37,296 nt of DNA from a virus (taxonomy: Duplodnaviria; Heunggongvirae; Uroviricota; Caudoviricetes), in IMG/VR virus record IMGVR_UViG_2711768063_000005, positions 1 to 37,296 of that record; one strand, written 5' to 3'. Of this stretch, positions 13,928-20,638 are shown one piece after another. The translations under genes were made by a program, and so were the position numbers. Every line of letters starts with the position of its first letter. Position 1 is the stretch's first letter. The notes beneath the pieces are model-generated. The model saw nothing but the letters and a program-made list of their open reading frames with translations. It was not told the origin of the DNA and searched no databases.

Positions 13928-13946
13928 GACGGCCATATTGGCCGTC
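13928..13946. terminator. Bidirectional hairpin between convergent Q and the cargo cassette
   Basis: Perfect inverted repeat GACGGCCA-tat-TGGCCGTC in an AT-rich context; overlaps the stop of the minus-strand gene. Confidence 0.45.
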
Positions 13947-15123
13947 AGCTAAATAAATATGTAATAGCATAAGGCGTAAGTAAAAAGTAGAATCTAAATG
14001 TAAGATATAAGCCACATAAAACTATAATTCCTAATGAGGCAAAAACAATTTTCTGAACAAGCAATCTTGTGGTTAAACTATCAAATGTATCCTTTATATC
14101 TTCGTAAATAGCCTTGAAGTTATATTCTGCTTGTTGTTTTTTATGATTTAACTCATCATTTATTGCTGTTAAAGTTTGCCATTGATTAAATAGAACAAAT
14201 AGAATCATAATAGTGAAGAACAATGCACCCAACACTACAGCTGTGTTTATTAATGCTTGACTATCCCAACCATTAGCCTGCTTCATTTGAGTCGCAACGA
14301 TAATTGTTGCGACGGGGATACCTAATATCTGATTTTGTATGTCACTGAATACTTTATGTATTTTCCCCATCTCTTCTATTTTGGCTACTCGTAACTGATC
14401 CAGTATTTTCTCGTAAGAAAAACCAGAAACGAATACTTTGTATCCTTTTTGATAACTTTCATAAAGTTGTCCTAAATCCCTTAACATGAAGGAAAAAGAG
14501 GTTTCTTTAGTTTTAGATTCACATGATGATTTTATACTACTTGCTAAAATAGTAAGTTTTTGATCTTTATGCGTATCTTCTGCAAAGTTTGCGATCAAAT
14601 TATGAATCAGATCTCCATTAACATTCATAAGATCATCGCTAGAATAATTTACTGGAATTTTTAGTACGTTGGATTCGACGAATACCAATTCAAAATTTGT
14701 TTCATCTAAATAAGCAGAACAATCTTTGAATAAAGTAATTAAGCTCAAAACATCTCTGTACTTGGATATAATAGCAGGCGACTTTTTATCCCTGTTGTGA
14801 TAATTAAGTTCGATTATAAAGAAGTTACTGGCTTCCTTTATCCTATTTTTAGGATTTTTTAAATACTCATTAAAAGAGAAATGTAGCTGCCCCAATCGTA
14901 ATTTGGGGGGGGTTATATGTAAGGTTATAGTTTGGCCTAACTCAATGTTGCCAGATTCAAGGGTGATGCCAAAATCATGGGGATTCTCTGTGATATCGTT
15001 GATGATGTCACAGAGCTCCTCGTTTGAAAGAATGAGTGATGCTTCAGATAGGGTACCTGCAAATGTAGCGGCCTTGTAAATAGTCACTAAGTCTTTGAAG
15101 GTTCTCTGATTGTTACTGCTCAT
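13945..15123 (-). CDS. Membrane-anchored protein of unknown function (about 290-aa soluble N-terminal region, two C-terminal TM helices); partner of the NA37-like gene
   Basis: ATG at 15123 with AGGTG 6 nt upstream, inside the last codons of the upstream gene (11-nt overlap, coupling). Hydrophobic segments ALINTAVVLGALFFTIMILFVLF and IVFASLGIIVLCGLYLTFRFYFLL near the C-terminus. AT-rich. No family recognised. Confidence 0.7.
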   Translation of the reverse strand: MSSNNQRTFKDLVTIYKAATFAGTLSEASLILSNEELCDIINDITENPHDFGITLESGNIELGQTITLHITPPKLRLGQLHFSFNEYLKNPKNRIKEASNFFIIELNYHNRDKKSPAIISKYRDVLSLITLFKDCSAYLDETNFELVFVESNVLKIPVNYSSDDLMNVNGDLIHNLIANFAEDTHKDQKLTILASSIKSSCESKTKETSFSFMLRDLGQLYESYQKGYKVFVSGFSYEKILDQLRVAKIEEMGKIHKVFSDIQNQILGIPVATIIVATQMKQANGWDSQALINTAVVLGALFFTIMILFVLFNQWQTLTAINDELNHKKQQAEYNFKAIYEDIKDTFDSLTTRLLVQKIVFASLGIIVLCGLYLTFRFYFLLTPYAITYLFS

Positions 15124-16147
15124 CCTCTTCACCTAATTCTGATAAAATCTCTGATCTTAGCGTATCCGGAATCTCGGTAAGTATCAATTTATCGTTTTCT
15201 GAATCATAAAGAACGCTGCCATCATGCAAGGCCGCACGCTCGAATTTCAGAGACCAATGTTTGGACTTTCCTTTGAAACTAACAAGCCCACGTATAACGT
15301 TGCCATCAGGCACGAACCCATCAGAGAACTCCAGATCGTCATTGGTTAACTTTTCAACTAACAACTCAGGAGCAGTTGGCCATATCTCGTTTGCAAAAAT
15401 TTGAGTGTCGAAAGTTTCACCAGAACGATTTAAATTTTTTAATTTTTCATGAGCCTTATTTAGGAACTCTTCACGTGCCTCTGGTTCAAAACCTCTTTCA
15501 GTAGCAAATTCTAAAAGTGCATTCCGTAATTTTGTTGTTTCTTGTTTGGCAATTAGAATATCGTTGCAACCTAAAAACTTTTTGAAATAACCTGCTACTG
15601 AATTTTGCCCCTTTAGAAAGCTAATATATCTCTCTTTGCCATTCTGGCGCCCAGTTAAGTCAATTCGTCCCGCTACTCGAAGTTTAGCAATGTCTAGATA
15701 TTCACTTTCTTGAATTTCAAAATCGTGGACTGAAGAGCCAACTGCTGATGTTAGGATTGCAACCATCAAATAATGATTTCCATTTACCTCATTATGGGCA
15801 ATTATTACATAACCACCAGTAGACATTGATTCATCATCGGCTCTGGCTTTTAAATGATTGATCATTCGGATACTAGTATCATAAAAACTATGTGTTTTAT
15901 TTACGAAATAATCATCAACGATATTACCCATAGGGTAACTATCGCGGTCATCTTCAAATTTCCCATATCCTTTACCTGCTCTCCCAGAGTACCTTTCAGT
16001 AAGTGCGTTAGAGAGGTCTTTTGATGCTTGCTGAACAGGTTTTTCTGAAGGACAAGGAATAATGGTGGCTAACCCCTGTTGTTCCTTGTTCATAATGTGA
16101 ACAATAAACTTATGAGTGATATTAGTGGGGGTCGCTGATGCAGTCAT
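15113..16147 (-). CDS. NdpA/YejK-like nucleoid-associated protein homologue (NA37 family), phage-encoded
   Basis: Full-length collinearity with E. coli YejK as I recall it: [22 protein letters not shown] vs [38 protein letters not shown] vs [25 protein letters not shown]...FLG vs TRYLTFLKG...FLG. AAGGA RBS 8 nt upstream of the ATG; AT-rich. Confidence 0.8.
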   Translation of the reverse strand: [344 protein letters not shown]

Positions 16148-16437: not shown

Positions 16438-16764
16438 ATGCCTCATAACCCAAATACTTGGCTGGAGTTGGTCCAGAGCTGGTGGCGTGGAGACACACCG
16501 CTGGGCGCAGTGATTATGTCGATTGTTATGGCTGGTTTGCGCATTGCCTATTTTGGCGGTGGTGGTGGCTGGAAGCGAAAAACACTCGAAATTCTACTCT
16601 GTGGCGCTCTGACGCTGACTTTTGCATCCGCTCTTGAGTATGTCGGATGGCCTAAATCGCTTTCTGTTGCCATTGGTGGTGGGGTGGGGCTGATCGGTGT
16701 CGATGCTATTCGTGGGGCTGCAATGAGAGTAATCGGTAATAAGTTTGGTGGCTCTAAGGAGTAA
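16438..16764 (+). CDS. S: Holin (lambda S-like class I)
   Basis: GAGGTGA RBS; 108 aa with hydrophobic segments and charged C-terminus; directly upstream of the endolysin; pattern resembles lambda S. Confidence 0.8.
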   Translation: MPHNPNTWLELVQSWWRGDTPLGAVIMSIVMAGLRIAYFGGGGGWKRKTLEILLCGALTLTFASALEYVGWPKSLSVAIGGGVGLIGVDAIRGAAMRVIGNKFGGSKE

Positions 16765-16767
16765 TTT

Positions 16768-17244
16768 ATGCAGGTACTAAATTCCCAGCGTAAAGCTTTC
16801 CTCGATATGGTGGCATGGTCAGAAGGAACGGATAACGGGCGACAACCGACACGTAACCACGGTTATGATGTTATTGTTGGTGGTGAACTGTTCACTGATT
16901 ACTCCGATCACCCTCGCAAACTTGTCACGCTAAACCCAAAACTCAAATCAACAGCCGCCGGACGTTACCAGCTTCTTTCCCGTTGGTGGGATGCCTACCG
17001 TAAGCAGCTTGGCCTGAAAGACTTCTCTCCAAAAAGCCAGGACGCTGTGGCATTGCAGCAGATTAAGGAGCGTGGCGCTTTACCGATGATTGATCGCGGT
17101 GATATTCGTCAGGCTATCGACCGTTGCAGCAATATCTGGGCTTCACTGCCGGGCGCTGGTTATGGCCAGTTCGAGCATAAGGCTGACAGCCTGATTGCAA
17201 AATTCAAAGAGGCTGGCGGAACGGTCAGAGAGATTGAGGTATGA
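16768..17244 (+). CDS. R: Endolysin, lambda R-type lytic transglycosylase
   Basis: 158 aa; [58 protein letters not shown]... matches lambda R nearly residue for residue as I recall it. Confidence 0.95.
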
Positions 17245-17678
17245 GCAGAGTCACCGCGATTATCTCCGCTCTGATTATCTGCATCATCGTCTGCCTGTCA
17301 TGGGCTGTTAATCATTACCGTGATAACGCCATCGCCTACAAAGAGCAGCGCGATAAAGCCACATCCATCATCGCTGACATGCAGAAGCGTCAACGTGATG
17401 TAGCAGAACTCGACGCCAGATATACAAAGGAGCTTGCTGATGCTAACGCGACTATCGAAAGTCTCCGTGCTGATGTTTCTGCTGGGCGTAAGCGCCTGCA
17501 AGTCGCCGCCACCTGTGCAAAGTCAACGACCGGAGCCAGCAGCATGGGCGATGGAGAAAGCCCAGGACTTACAGCAGATGCTGAACTCAATTATTACCGT
17601 CTCCGAAGTGGAATCGACAGGATAACCGCGCAGGTTAACTACCTGCAGGAATACATCAGGACGCAATGCCTTCGATGA
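17241..17678 (+). CDS. Rz: i-spanin Rz
   Basis: N-terminal signal-anchor [30 protein letters not shown] matches lambda Rz; coiled-coil periplasmic domain. Confidence 0.85.
17434..17625 (+). CDS. Rz1: o-spanin Rz1 lipoprotein, embedded in the +1 frame of Rz
   Basis: Lipobox LLGVSAC followed by a proline-rich segment ([16 protein letters not shown]), entirely within Rz, as in lambda. Confidence 0.8.
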
Positions 17679-17867
17679 TAGCGATAATTTTACTCATCAT
17701 CCTTCACATCTGGCTCTGTAGACAGGGTGATGCTTACTTCTGGAGCGAATCCAGATTAAACATCTCATTGCTGATGCTTGATATTGAGCATCTGGCGCGC
17801 GGTAAGGGCTGTGTTGAGATAAGTGCCAGTTCATTACAAAGCTATATCTAATGGAACCTGAAATAAT

Positions 17868-17885
17868 TTGTCATTGTCATGACAA
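17868..17885. promoter_or_regulatory. TTGTCAT direct repeat plus 12-bp perfect palindrome TTGTCATGACAA overlapping a -35-like hexamer upstream of the first moron gene
   Basis: TTGTCA-N16-TAATGA promoter-like arrangement; palindrome could be an operator. Confidence 0.3.
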
Positions 17886-17928
17886 GAAAATTCATTAATG
17901 ATGAGCTCTCATTATACGGGAGGTAGAT

Positions 17929-18177
17929 ATGGCATTTCGTTATTTTGAACTTACCGAAAATATTCCTTTTGAGGATGCAAGAGAGCTTCACGTACAGTTC
18001 AAACACCACTTAGAATATGTTGTAAAGGCGTTATTTATGCCAGGAACACATGAAAAGCATTTAATTGTTGAAGGCCGGGATGACGAATCGATAACACAGA
18101 TATTTGGTGGGCATGATGAAAAGTTTATGCATCTTTATCATATCGATGAATATGAAAAATGTGAAGACTTAATCTAA
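17929..18177 (+). CDS. Hypothetical small His-rich protein (82 aa), moron
   Basis: GGGAGG RBS at 6-nt spacing; AT-rich; no recognised family. Confidence 0.5.
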   Translation: MAFRYFELTENIPFEDARELHVQFKHHLEYVVKALFMPGTHEKHLIVEGRDDESITQIFGGHDEKFMHLYHIDEYEKCEDLI

Positions 18178-18292
18178 CCTCCTACGACTGTTTTTATTGC
18201 CATCATAAAAGCCATTCCTTGCAGAGTGGCTTTGATAATGGATATCCCAACAAGCGGATAAGACAATAAATATACCCACCAAGGGATAAACA

Positions 18293-18808
18293 ATGTCTAA
18301 AATCACGGTTACACCTGCATAGCAGATCCGCTTAAACCTGCTGGCGAAACTGAACTATGACACCGCCGCTGCAGCAGACGCGATTAAGTTTGTTGGTGAC
18401 GATCCGTTGAAGTATCAAATCTTTGTGAACCAGTTAAGCTGGGTAACATCTGAAAGCGGGCTGGTAGCCAGAACGACGAAAGCTATCAAAGAGTCGGAAG
18501 ACACACTACTGTGGTTTGAAGCTGAATCTGGTTCATACGTGAATGAATGTGGTAATTTAATTCTCCGCAAAAAAAAGGGGATAAAAATGCCAAAGAATGT
18601 CATAGCTATTTTACCGGGTGACGCGTTTGATCATGTTGTTGTCCAGGACGACCTGGAGATTGTTACCTTCAGGGGTGACAAGGGCGGCGTGCTTACTATG
18701 CCTATCGAGGAGTACGAACTAGACGGGATAAGTTATAACGTCGCACGTTGTGACGGTATGGTCACTGACGAAAAAGTTGAGAAGGCTATCAGACACTTCA
18801 CCAAGTAA
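18293..18808 (+). pseudogene. 172-codon reading frame interrupted by a single in-frame amber (TAG) at codon 10; candidate pseudogene or suppression/reinitiation-dependent gene
   Basis: ATG at 18293 with AAGGGA RBS; TAG at 18320-18322; frame continues uninterrupted to 18808 (the track ORF begins at TTG 18407 in the same frame); strong terminator follows. Confidence 0.4.
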
Positions 18809-18825
18809 TAATCAGCTTCCGAACC

Positions 18826-18850
18826 AAGCCTCGCAATAGCGAGGCTTTTT
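18826..18850 (+). terminator. Rho-independent terminator
   Basis: AAGCCTCGC-aata-GCGAGGCTTTTT. Confidence 0.65.
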
Positions 18851-18862
18851 AACGACAGAGGT

Positions 18863-19057
18863 ATGACAGTGGTTCTTACAGCTAAGCAGTTTGAAGACCT
18901 TGCATCCTTCGCGAAGGAAGATAGCCAGCCTCAATACACCATCGCAACCGGAATAATCCCAGAATTCGAAGATGATTGTGAGTTTATCCCCGTTTATGCC
19001 GGGCTCATCGCTTATTTAGAGTTACTGAATCACGGTGTATTGCAACTCGACCACTAG
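18863..19057 (+). CDS. Hypothetical small acidic protein (64 aa)
   Basis: ORF between two terminators; RBS spacing poor (GAGG immediately before the ATG), so uncertain. Confidence 0.35.
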   Translation: MTVVLTAKQFEDLASFAKEDSQPQYTIATGIIPEFEDDCEFIPVYAGLIAYLELLNHGVLQLDH

Positions 19058-19131
19058 CGACATTACGCCAAGTATTCATCAAGTGCCTAGTTTAATGTTA
19101 AATTATTCCCTCATTCCTAAAAGGGAATGTT

Positions 19132-19533
19132 ATGAAAATAGATCACGAGTATTTGAAAGGTCTTTTGGAAGCTTTCGAGGCGTCTGAAGAGCCGCATACT
19201 GATATAAAGCAGCTGCAGCTGGCTGGGTATGACTACAGCACCGATGAATTTTTATTCCATATGCGTTTATTGGCTGATCGTCAACTAATTGCTAGAACAG
19301 ACGGCAAGTATGGGTTTGGTTTCTCTGAGGCTGCTGAGGGAGGATCATGGTTCGTTATACCGTTACGATTAACTTCAAGCGGTCATGACTTCCTTGAAGC
19401 TCTCAGGAATAAAGAGGTTTGGAATTCTCTCAAGACCGGCTTTAAAGATGCAAGCATTGGAACATTAGTTGACGTTTCAAGGCGTTTGCTGGATGGTTAT
19501 ATTCAGAAAAAAATTGACGACTTAATTGGCTAA
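19132..19533 (+). CDS. Hypothetical protein (133 aa), moron; possibly DUF2513-like
   Basis: AAGGGAA RBS; small hairpin overlapping the RBS (TTCCCT...AGGGAA); own terminator downstream. Confidence 0.55.
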   Translation: MKIDHEYLKGLLEAFEASEEPHTDIKQLQLAGYDYSTDEFLFHMRLLADRQLIARTDGKYGFGFSEAAEGGSWFVIPLRLTSSGHDFLEALRNKEVWNSLKTGFKDASIGTLVDVSRRLLDGYIQKKIDDLIG

Positions 19534-19550
19534 TATTTTATATAACCATC

Positions 19551-19576
19551 AGCCCCGCAATCGCGGGGCTTTTTTA
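19551..19576 (+). terminator. Rho-independent terminator
   Basis: AGCCCCGC-aatc-GCGGGGCTTTTTT. Confidence 0.7.
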
Positions 19577-19667
19577 TTGCCATTATGATGGCAGATACAT
19601 TGCTATGGCGTAACAGGATTTCAACTATGAACCCAACAGAAGCAGCTACATCACCGAAGGACGGATA

Positions 19668-20018
19668 ATGCCACCACGCACACCAAAAGCCTGCCGTGTT
19701 CGCGGGTGCCGCCATACCACCACTGACCCGTCAGGTTATTGCGAAAGCCACAAAAGCGAAGGCTGGAAGCAATACAAGCCAGGACAATCCCGTCATCAGC
19801 GCGGCTACGGTTCGAAGTGGGATGTTATCCGCGCGCGTGTGCTGAAGCGTGACAAAGGTTTATGTCAGTTATGTCTGCGTGCCGGTGTGGTGCGTGAGGC
19901 GAAAACCGTTGACCACATCATCCCTAAAGCGCATGGCGGCACTGATGCCGACAGCAATCTGCAGAGCCTGTGCTGGCCGTGTCATAAGGCGAAGACGGCC
20001 CGTGAACGGTTGAAGTAA
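19668..20018 (+). CDS. HNH endonuclease (terminase-associated)
   Basis: AAGGA RBS; Cys-rich N-terminus (CRVRGCRH...CESH) and HNH core DHIIPKAHGGTDADSNLQSLCWPCH; located immediately upstream of terminase genes. Confidence 0.85.
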   Translation: MPPRTPKACRVRGCRHTTTDPSGYCESHKSEGWKQYKPGQSRHQRGYGSKWDVIRARVLKRDKGLCQLCLRAGVVREAKTVDHIIPKAHGGTDADSNLQSLCWPCHKAKTARERLK

Positions 20019-20143
20019 GAACCAGTTCCCACTGCCAGAGGGGAGGGGCGGGTCAAATCCCTGCGGCCTGACGTCTTCCGGACTGCCCGCCCCATCGTTT
20101 TTTTATACCCGCGAAAAATGAAATTTAACCAGGAGTGCCGCAT
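20019..20143. other. Candidate cos / packaging-initiation region
   Basis: GC-rich inverted repeat GGGGCGGG...CCCGCCCC followed by a T-run, between the HNH gene and the small terminase gene; assigned by position. Confidence 0.3.
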
Positions 20144-20638
20144 ATGGCTGGAACGGCGGGGCGTTCCGGGCGTCGCCCCAAGCCAACGGCGCGCAAGGCG
20201 CTGGCCGGAAACCCCGGCAAGCGAGCCCTGAATAAAGATGAACCTGTTTTTACGCCCATCAAAGGTGTTGAGCCACCGGAGTGGTTCGCTGAAGAAGATC
20301 TCCCTCTCGCTACGATCATGTGGCAACTGACAACTAAAGAACTCTGCGGTCAGGGCCTGCTGTGCGTGACTGACCTCGCGGTGCTTGAGCGGTGGTGCGT
20401 GGCCTACGAGTTCTGGCGACGTGCCGTGAAAAATATTGCCAGACAGGGCAACACCATCACCGGTGCAATGGGCGGTATGGTCAAAAATCCGGAGCTGACC
20501 GCCAAAAAAGAACAGGAGTCCGAGATGAGCAGTACGGGGGCAATGCTCGGACTCGACCCCAGCAGCCGCCAGCGTCTGATTGGCCTGGCGGGGCAGAAGA
20601 AAGCCACTAACCCGTTTCTGAAAATCATCGAATCATGA
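20144..20638 (+). CDS. Terminase small subunit (P27 family)
   Basis: AGGAG 8 nt upstream of the ATG; N-terminus [30 protein letters not shown] is typical of P27-family small terminases. Confidence 0.8.

Follow-up and report, generated by a model that had tools for sequence, protein, structure and literature searches.

The window analyzed here, a 37,296-nucleotide (nt) stretch covering positions 1 to 37,296 of the IMG/VR record IMGVR_UViG_2711768063_000005, is a lambda-like E. coli prophage. Between its lysis cassette and its packaging genes lies a segment of small genes (17666-19600) that is an ordinary accessory, or moron, array of the type found in lambda-like prophages. We read it as a variable accessory-gene array of lambda-like enterobacterial phages, situated at a mosaic joint and containing two genes that may be transcribed on their own, and we assign this reading as a whole, including the transcription model proposed below, a probability of about 0.6. 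Between the six small genes lie RNA hairpins, namely two canonical terminators, one decayed terminator and conserved boundary hairpins.

An initial annotation, made from the sequence of the window, had described a cluster of four small open reading frames (ORFs) with independent promoter-like and terminator elements. The ORFs of 82, 64 and 133 codons are indeed present (17929-18177, 18863-19057 and 19132-19533), but their number rises to six: an ORF at 17666-17851 had been overlooked, and a frame of 172 codons splits into two genes. The AT-rich context is likewise borne out. GC content is 42.0% over 17679-19580, with only 34.9% in orf82 alone, versus 51.4% in the lysis genes and 55.6% from the HNH endonuclease to the large terminase gene, so that the cluster differs in base composition from its flanking genes as a moron should. 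As an interpretation, the moron holds for non-structural, compositionally distinct and exchangeable accessory genes, two of which show a putative promoter-gene-terminator layout, but it does not extend to every unit of the array.

A joint of two parental arrangements

Six complete E. coli genomes carry positions 17600-19700 with 99.6-99.9% identity. Other genomes contain either 17600-18290 alone or 18829-19700 alone, each beside different lysis or terminase modules. Positions 17600-18261 share 95% identity with a P22/Sf6-type prophage in strain LR-29-1, where Rz, orf50, orf82, DUF2560 and an Sf6-type terminase follow each other; in other prophages the orf82 slot is filled otherwise, by an S1 peptidase together with an ORF of 59 amino acids (aa) or by Sf6p66. 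Positions 18829-19700 are 98.6% identical to prophages where a first terminator (T1), orf64, DUF2513, a second terminator (T2) and the HNH gene directly follow a different type of lysis cassette with LysC. Because its left and right parts match different prophages separately, the segment appears as a joint of two parental arrangements, each bringing its own accessory genes. The left part (orf61, orf82, DUF2560) has the P22/Sf6-type order and the right part (T1, orf64, DUF2513, T2, HNH, P27-type small terminase) the HK97-type order.

We compared about 190 related loci, with IMG/VR loci for orf82 (n = 13), orf64 (n = 80) and DUF2513 (n = 80). In these IMG/VR loci, the three genes are almost always found between lysis and terminase genes; their combinations are numerous, and the accompanying small terminases are of at least three types. 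Twelve loci lack DUF2513 at this place: orf64 and a same-type HNH gene (78-81% identical) are just 70-72 nt apart there. Close relatives hence differ in presence or absence of these genes at the site, a further hallmark of morons. DUF2513 also adjoins xis/int in phage Chlobot, and in distant loci it is next to an integrase-like ORF or to ORFs that resemble those of the nin region, as judged by eye and not by family search.

Ratios of nonsynonymous to synonymous substitution rates, calculated against diverged homologues, were 0.06-0.16 for orf82, 0.07-0.29 for orf64 and about 0.05 for DUF2513, where synonymous sites were mostly saturated. These values point to real genes under purifying selection. 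That the homologues might prove to be conserved virion or packaging components had been named by the initial annotation among the possible objections. Their varied combinations, the different terminase types and the 12 loci devoid of DUF2513 argue strongly against a packaging or virion role of orf82, orf64 and DUF2513. In particular, DUF2513 should not be a packaging component, because phages that share the HNH-terminase module can lack it.

The DUF2513 cassette

The gene at 19132-19533 (+ strand) encodes a highly conserved protein of 133 aa with a winged helix-turn-helix (HTH) and C-terminal helices. It belongs to the Pfam family DUF2513 (PF10711), scoring 50.8 bits where 29.6 are required; the match extends over positions 1-98 of the 100 in the profile, and Pfam assigns the family to the HTH clan CL0123. 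Its 130 homologues are 46-98% identical. The AlphaFold2 model has a mean confidence (pLDDT) of 96 and shows three C-terminal helices after a winged helix-turn-helix, i.e., the fold with a helical dimerization extension; structural matches in Foldseek had E values of about 0.01 and template-modeling (TM) scores of about 0.45. The arrangement H1-H2-H3-wing plus C-terminal helices and the HTH clan are shared with the MarR/PadR winged-helix regulators. Unlike these, DUF2513 has no sequence-level profile match to that group in Pfam or in the Protein Data Bank (PDB), its TM-score stays at about 0.45, and it is acidic. From the model, DUF2513 probably is a dimeric winged-helix protein that binds nucleic acid or a protein partner.

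An extended -10 element (TG-T-TAAATT; TGTTAAATT in the window) is located at 19096-19104 (+ strand), 36 nt upstream of the DUF2513 ATG. The pattern TGnTAnnnT occurs at -38 to -31 of the ATG in 36 of 48 non-redundant upstream regions, against 2.3 on average and 7 at most in shuffled sequences, and it persists even if the other upstream DNA is unrelated. Between this element and the gene, a 5' leader hairpin (19112-19129, + strand) pairs the Shine-Dalgarno sequence (CAUUCCU/AGGGAAUG; ΔG -7.5, z -3.1). Such pairing of Shine-Dalgarno and anti-Shine-Dalgarno sequence is retained by the majority of 44 non-redundant relatives, in hairpins that differ in sequence (mean z -1.8). Downstream, a canonical terminator follows DUF2513 in nearly all contexts, and again the terminator sequences vary. 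Judged by these motifs, DUF2513 shows the textbook layout of a moron, with putative promoter, gene and terminator.

Distant DUF2513 genes are preceded at about 15-30 nt by a perfect palindrome, GTGACATGTCAC (loci L182 and L188), or by its core TGACATGTCA (L186 and L187). It is placed just upstream of the Shine-Dalgarno sequence, where it replaces the anti-Shine-Dalgarno hairpin, and in L182 and L188 it lies downstream of a -10-like TATAA. The palindrome could be an autoregulatory operator.

The terminators T1 and T2 and orf64

Two strong rho-independent terminators had been proposed for the region, and both have the expected hairpin and T-run. T1 (18826-18850, + strand) has a 9-bp stem, an AAUA loop and U5 (ΔG -16.1, z -4.6), and T2 is located at 19551-19576 (+ strand; ΔG -17.2, z -4.4). 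They share the motif GCCYCGCAATNGCGRGGCTTTTT, which occurs twice in the window versus zero expected occurrences. As 24-nt direct repeats (18827-18850 and 19551-19574), T1 and T2 share 88% identity, with a stem change that is compensatory, and bracket orf64 and DUF2513. A third version of this terminator, in locus L003, has a further compensatory change from G-C to A-U. Terminators of the T1/T2 family precede orf64 and follow DUF2513 in many other phages, too. Repeats of this type may be shared crossover points. Terminators of their own, as expected of morons, are thus found after DUF2513 (T2) and after orf73 (T1), and the one of orf82 has decayed in the window. Past T2, the conserved tail (TTTTTATTGCCAT...) contains a minimal hairpin TGCCAT-TATG-ATGGCA (19578-19593, + strand; repeat family D4).

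The very acidic protein of orf64 (18863-19057, + strand; 64 aa, isoelectric point (pI) 4.05) corresponds to phrog_9518 and matched no Pfam domain above threshold. Its ATG is found 12 nt past T1, and the same hairpin at the same distance is present in about 40 of 45 non-redundant contexts, whose homology to the window starts at the edge of the T1 hairpin. As T1 sits 12 nt upstream and leaves no room, orf64 most likely has no promoter of its own.

orf61 and orf82

The overlooked gene, orf61 (17666-17851, + strand), matches phrog_11822 (3e-34) and resembles Sf6 gp65. Its start overlaps the Rz stop by 13 nt, and its product has a hydrophobic helix at the N-terminus. The usual ORF of Sf6 gp65 type has 50 aa, and orf61 is a frameshifted version with 61 aa: GGG at 17806-17808, versus GGGG in Sf6, LR-29-1 and S1, moves the end from codon 50 to codon 61. 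The longer form is common, being present on 419 contigs, and orf61 is considered a putative coding ORF.

The acidic, His-rich product of orf82 (17929-18177, + strand; 82 aa, pI 5.1, net charge -10) belongs to a small family confined to Enterobacterales. Its predicted fold is ferredoxin-like (beta-alpha-beta-alpha-beta) and generic. Upstream, a promoter-like element (17874-17902, + strand) consists of a -35 hexamer TTGTCA (17874-17879), a 17-nt spacer and a -10 hexamer AATGAT (17897-17902), with 9 of 12 consensus matches. The pattern TTG[TC]C[AG]-17 nt-[AG]A[TA][GT]AT is preserved in loci L018-L025, in which orf82 is just 73-84% identical and the DNA further upstream is unrelated, yet hexamers and 17-nt spacing persist. 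In relatives with an overall identity of 94-95%, the region between orf61 and orf82 is identical.

The promoter-like region with a palindrome that had been noted before the first ORF is partly confirmed. A perfect 12-bp palindrome, TTGTCATGACAA (17874-17885), does overlap the -35-like TTGTCA, but relatives do not preserve the right half of this palindrome, and a generic promoter scan of the region stayed at chance. Considered as a repressor operator, TTGTCATGACAA was dropped, given the unconserved half and a recurrence in the window at chance level. The top consensus promoter match of the region, TTCACA-17-TATGAT with 10 of 12 matches, is on the minus strand (18165-18137), antisense in the 3' end of orf82.

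At 18178-18199 (+ strand), the window contains a remnant of an orf82 terminator, CCTCCTACGACTG-TTTTTATTG versus CCGCCTCAGGGCGG-TTTTTTATTG in relatives. In four diverged relatives (L018, L019, L021 and L024), the terminator CCGCCTCAGGGCGG-T6 is intact and overlaps or follows the stop codon; the remnant in the window forms no stem.

Boundary hairpins between the cassettes

Apart from the terminators, a recurrent stem-loop element marks the gaps between the small genes. Its pattern is CAT[TC]A[CT]A-stem-loop-stem-[TG]GATAATG with the base GCCATTA...TAATGGC, and 87 copies were found in 1.1 megabases of related loci. All 87 are on the strand of late transcription (+), in gaps between small genes after the lysis cassette. 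The window contains a class B hairpin at 18199-18242 (+ strand; GCCATCA...stem-loop...GATAATGG), with ΔG -22.9 and z -3.0 for 18180-18260, and at 19060-19098 (+ strand) a degenerate copy of class A (ACATTA...TAATGT), a hairpin that precedes DUF2513 in most relatives. Among 26 distinct copies, 96.6% of cells were paired and five pairs had changed on both sides. Covariation was 0.40 versus 0.175 in shuffles, with none of 500 reaching it, and at most 0.11 with the partners slid, although the flanks are fixed by the search pattern and the covariation is mostly between three sequence classes.

Searches of the whole window and of 17600-20200 against Rfam gave no family, and all sub-threshold hits were due to T2. 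We also considered the hairpin as a sigma-70 promoter, with GATAAT as -10 and TTACA as -35. This was rejected for its spacing of 21-22 nt; a TG two bases upstream of GATAAT is found in class A only. The boundary hairpin could rather be an RNA-stabilizing or processing element, or it could provide shared homology for cassette exchange. The genome papers of HK620 and Sf6 reportedly describe "boundary sequences" between modules.

A dead DUF2560 gene and the independent orf73

The ORF of 172 codons that the initial annotation called amber-interrupted exists as a frame (18293-18808) with an in-frame TAG at 18320-18322. It does not, however, represent one gene but two, a dead DUF2560 gene and the independent orf73. 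The DUF2560 pseudogene (18293-18538, + strand) matches PF10834 with 46.6 bits versus a cut-off of 25. This match is restricted to residues 1-62 after the amber codon, and members of the family have 80-81 aa, such as a Klebsiella phage protein starting MAEITPAEQIRLNLL... and the Sf6p67-type protein. An intact frame of about 80 aa is not given in the window, where the TAG takes the place of Glu or Gln at codon 10 and the normal stop is lost. All sequenced copies of the lineage contain the TAG (at least nine copies, from genomes and viral contigs). At the usual stop of DUF2560 (18536-18538), four of five other near-identical copies have TAA, and the window and strain 2c3 have TAC, which fuses the dead DUF2560 in frame to orf73.

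orf73 (18587-18808, + strand; 73 aa, net charge -6) starts with ATG at 18587, the Met of MPKNV, behind a Shine-Dalgarno sequence AAGGGG at 18575-18580. An exhaustive HMMER search with the residues encoded by 18533-18805 against 1.84 billion representatives produced 15 hits. All 13 short relatives (43-94 aa) align solely to the part from the MPKNV Met onward; in 11 of the 13, the alignment begins with that Met opposite the first residue of the relative, and ten of the 11 have 72-74 aa. Moreover, the exact 73-aa sequence is called as a protein of its own on 465 contigs. Homology to two large proteins (881 and 975 aa) was rejected, as these matches on PPC domain repeats reflect weak summed similarity. 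The family is rare, and no Pfam domain was found in orf73 above threshold. A word-indexed search for homologues of the 161-aa frame downstream of the amber codon retrieved just its own lineage and one other protein. The search for orf73 loci was based on a four-sequence alignment, the alignment of ten relatives being too diverse. An A8 tract (18569-18576) precedes the Shine-Dalgarno sequence of orf73; its length is the same in all six copies compared, giving no sign of slippage.

Comparison with known families and systems

That none of the ORFs resembles a lysis, packaging or structural protein, as first noted, was corroborated with Pfam, PHROG, NCBIfam and PADLOC, in which no lysis, packaging, structural or defense family was matched. 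The proposed check by profile searches and structure prediction led to a winged helix for DUF2513 and a generic ferredoxin-like fold for orf82, but not to a defense system. In PADLOC-DB, the single match was spurious (14.6 bits, type I restriction specificity subunit), and the NCBIfam defense models gave none. TBLASTN against 50,697 phage records found no relatives of orf82 and orf73, and DUF2513 in three records only. Searching PDB sequences with profiles of DUF2513 and orf82 yielded no match, and our literature search on DUF2513 and DUF2560 found no functional work.

Well-known morons are HK97 gp15 and lambda bor and lom. As in the lambdoid morons of Hendrix, Juhala and co-workers (definition quoted in PMC2629481), extra genes lie between two genes of the late operon, are absent from close relatives and have a base composition unlike their flanks, and DUF2513 and, ancestrally, orf82 come with their own putative promoter and terminator. 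The analogy is incomplete, since just two of the six ORFs have the putative promoter-gene-terminator layout.

The left part of the array has the gene order of the post-lysis region of P22-like phages (Sf6 genes 65-68; HK620 hkbM and hkbN), in which Rz, a small membrane-type ORF, a variable gene and DUF2560 are located before the terminase. Positions 17600-17850 are 95% identical to Sf6, and Sf6p67 is a DUF2560 protein. In contrast to Sf6, the variable slot holds orf82 and not Sf6p66, the DUF2560 gene is a different allele and inactivated, and the window continues with orf73, orf64, DUF2513 and an HK97-type HNH-terminase module in place of the P22/Sf6-type terminase.

In phage phi80, a prophage-expressed gene for tail-assembly-inhibition defense, Tai, and a small Q-dependent counter-defense gene, Ati, are found just upstream of the packaging module (PMC11364771). 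The site between Rz and the packaging module, within a Q-dependent operon, is the same as in the window, which resembles this locus also in its putative mixture of a constitutively prophage-expressed gene with a small gene made under Q only. We take Tai to be the annotated 204-aa ORF on the minus strand of phi80. In contrast to the window with its co-directional genes of at most 133 aa, Tai has about 26 kDa and is on the opposite strand, and the operon is non-contiguous. There is no sequence similarity either, as BLASTP and TBLASTN with phi80 gp49-gp53 found no counterpart among the window ORFs or anywhere in the window.

Proposed transcription model and alternative explanations

Terminators within a Q-antiterminated late operon alone do not prove autonomous units. 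Autonomous transcription, initially attributed to the cluster in general, is plausible for DUF2513 and orf82, two of the six, the orf82 terminator having decayed here; in contrast, no promoter is seen for orf64, orf73 and orf61, and DUF2560 is a pseudogene. We hence propose the following model. In the lytic phase, RNA polymerase modified by Q would arrive from upstream of the holin gene, read through all hairpins and express all genes. In the lysogen, only two units would fire on their own. In one of them, the weak sigma-70 promoter at 17874-17902 would drive orf82, and because the orf82 terminator is decayed, the transcript would probably continue through the dead DUF2560 and orf73 to T1. In the other, the extended -10 promoter at 19096-19104 would drive DUF2513, with the 5' hairpin occluding the ribosome-binding site, and transcription would end at T2. 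Located between T1 and the DUF2513 promoter, orf64 would be made from the Q-antiterminated late transcript only, since T1 is upstream and a promoter of its own is missing. T1 and T2 would thereby keep prophage transcripts out of the HNH and terminase genes.

Several points weigh against this model. Promoter activity is deduced from conserved motifs, and expression timing and any role in host fitness or phage competition are likewise inferred. The related sequences are not independent, so that the motif counts overstate the support. Both -10 hexamers are weak, with four of six matches each for AATGAT before orf82 and TAAATT before DUF2513. Because the generic promoter scan of the region was at chance, with 5 sites versus 5.4 expected, it is conservation in related loci that speaks for the promoters. 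DUF2513 is acidic (pI 5.2, net charge -6) and its top conserved residues are mostly hydrophobic, which weakens the inference of DNA binding. The orf82 model was confident in only one to two of five runs, with generic fold matches, and the boundary hairpins could serve a role outside the proposed model.

The scan at chance is also compatible with all six ORFs being passengers of the late operon, expressed by Q antitermination only. The "promoters" would then be incidental AT-rich sequence or parts of RNA elements, and terminators and hairpins would hold off 3' exonucleases, mark sites of RNA processing or insulate against stray transcripts from AT-rich DNA, without autonomous units. orf64 directly behind a terminator and without promoter would fit well, as would the orientation of all genes and of 87 of 87 boundary hairpins with late transcription, and G-U pairs in the hairpins suit an element that acts in RNA. 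However, TGnTAnnnT keeps a fixed distance from the DUF2513 start while the remaining upstream sequence is unrelated, and the -35 and -10 of orf82 hold their 17-nt spacing through many substitutions. Furthermore, the DUF2513 cassette is also found outside late operons, at int/xis and at the ORFs that look nin-like by eye, where there is no Q read-through from the late promoter. We therefore regard an array of mere passengers as possible but rather unlikely. Far less probable still, indeed very improbable, are DUF2513, DUF2560 or both as accessory factors of DNA packaging, which would bind cos or pac or act as terminase partners. This would explain their position upstream of HNH and terminase genes, and the winged-helix fold of DUF2513 would agree with it. 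In Sf6, the LR-29-1 and CUVET17-972 prophages and Klebsiella phages, the small terminase gene has DUF2560 as its immediate upstream neighbor, and the pair of DUF2560 and then DUF2513 stands just before terminase genes in at least 17 of 80 viral loci. On the other hand, each of the two occurs with several unrelated terminase types, the nonsense mutation in DUF2560 runs through a whole lineage (at least nine sequenced copies), the 12 loci with an HNH/P27 terminase module of the same type (HNH 78-81% identical) do without DUF2513, and DUF2513 has its own putative promoter and terminator and is again found near int/xis and, by eye, nin-like ORFs.

In analogy to phi80, the genes might be weapons in phage conflicts, with prophage-expressed DUF2513 and orf82 for defense or superinfection exclusion and the late-only, acidic orf64 and orf73 for counter-defense or self-immunity, like Tai and Ati. 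In phi80, such a pair does occupy the same position ahead of the packaging module (PMC11364771). The products of the window genes are small and acidic (orf64 with pI 4.05, orf82 with charge -10, orf73 with charge -6), and the inferred division into genes with and without promoters would fit. Yet position and composition are all this is based on: the proteins are not similar to Tai or Ati, PADLOC and NCBIfam contain no defense match, no gene is divergent as in the phi80 locus, and the genes are not co-inherited in fixed pairs. We thus judge this to be unlikely. Slightly more doubtful appears a hairpin-delimited cassette array, in which terminators of the form GCCYCGC-NNNN-GCGRGGC-U5 and/or GCCATTA...TAATGGC hairpins would serve as recombination joints and the cassettes would provide paired phage-competition functions, with DUF2513 and orf82 expressed from the prophage and the acidic orf64 and orf73 late only. 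We hence favor the variable accessory array at a mosaic joint, of which DUF2513 and orf82 would be the units active in the lysogen.

Genes flanking the array

Upstream of the array, the Q antiterminator gene extends up to about 13920, the holin gene starts at 16438 and the GH24 endolysin gene at 16768, and Rz spans 17241-17678 with Rz1 embedded at 17434-17625. Downstream, the HNH endonuclease gene (19668-20018) is followed by the P27-type small terminase (start at 20135) and the large terminase (start at 20635), with portal and remaining virion genes further downstream. The gap of 20020-20130 between HNH and small terminase is GC-rich and has inverted GGGGCGGG/CCCGCCCC motifs; this is where cos is expected in an HK97-type phage.

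Between Q and holin, a two-gene insert (13945-16147, minus strand) lies in DNA of 29-41% GC. Its overlapping genes encode a nucleoid-associated protein of NA37/YejK type (344 aa, Pfam 8e-69) and a partner of 395 aa, both of which score below threshold against the NCBIfam "anti-phage" models DS1_1 and DS1_2. In a 2026 preprint, nucleoid-associated proteins are reported to detect genome damage caused by phages and to switch on effectors (bioRxiv 10.64898/2026.04.06.716658). The pair probably is a prophage-borne defense system and as such a stronger moron candidate than the small ORFs.

Implications for lambda-like phages

For a stretch mostly annotated as "hypothetical protein", our analysis provides corrected gene models, with a pseudogene and a 73-aa gene that replace the 172-codon frame. 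If the hairpins did delimit an array of exchangeable cassettes, these cassettes would move between unrelated lambda-like phages and between moron sites, i.e., the post-lysis region, the nin region and the position beside int. Given the defense and counter-defense pair of phi80 at the site between lysis and packaging genes, the cassettes of the window are reasonable candidates for similar roles by analogy. As a self-contained and widely traveling cassette with putative promoter, gene and terminator, DUF2513 would be the most sensible target for functional tests.

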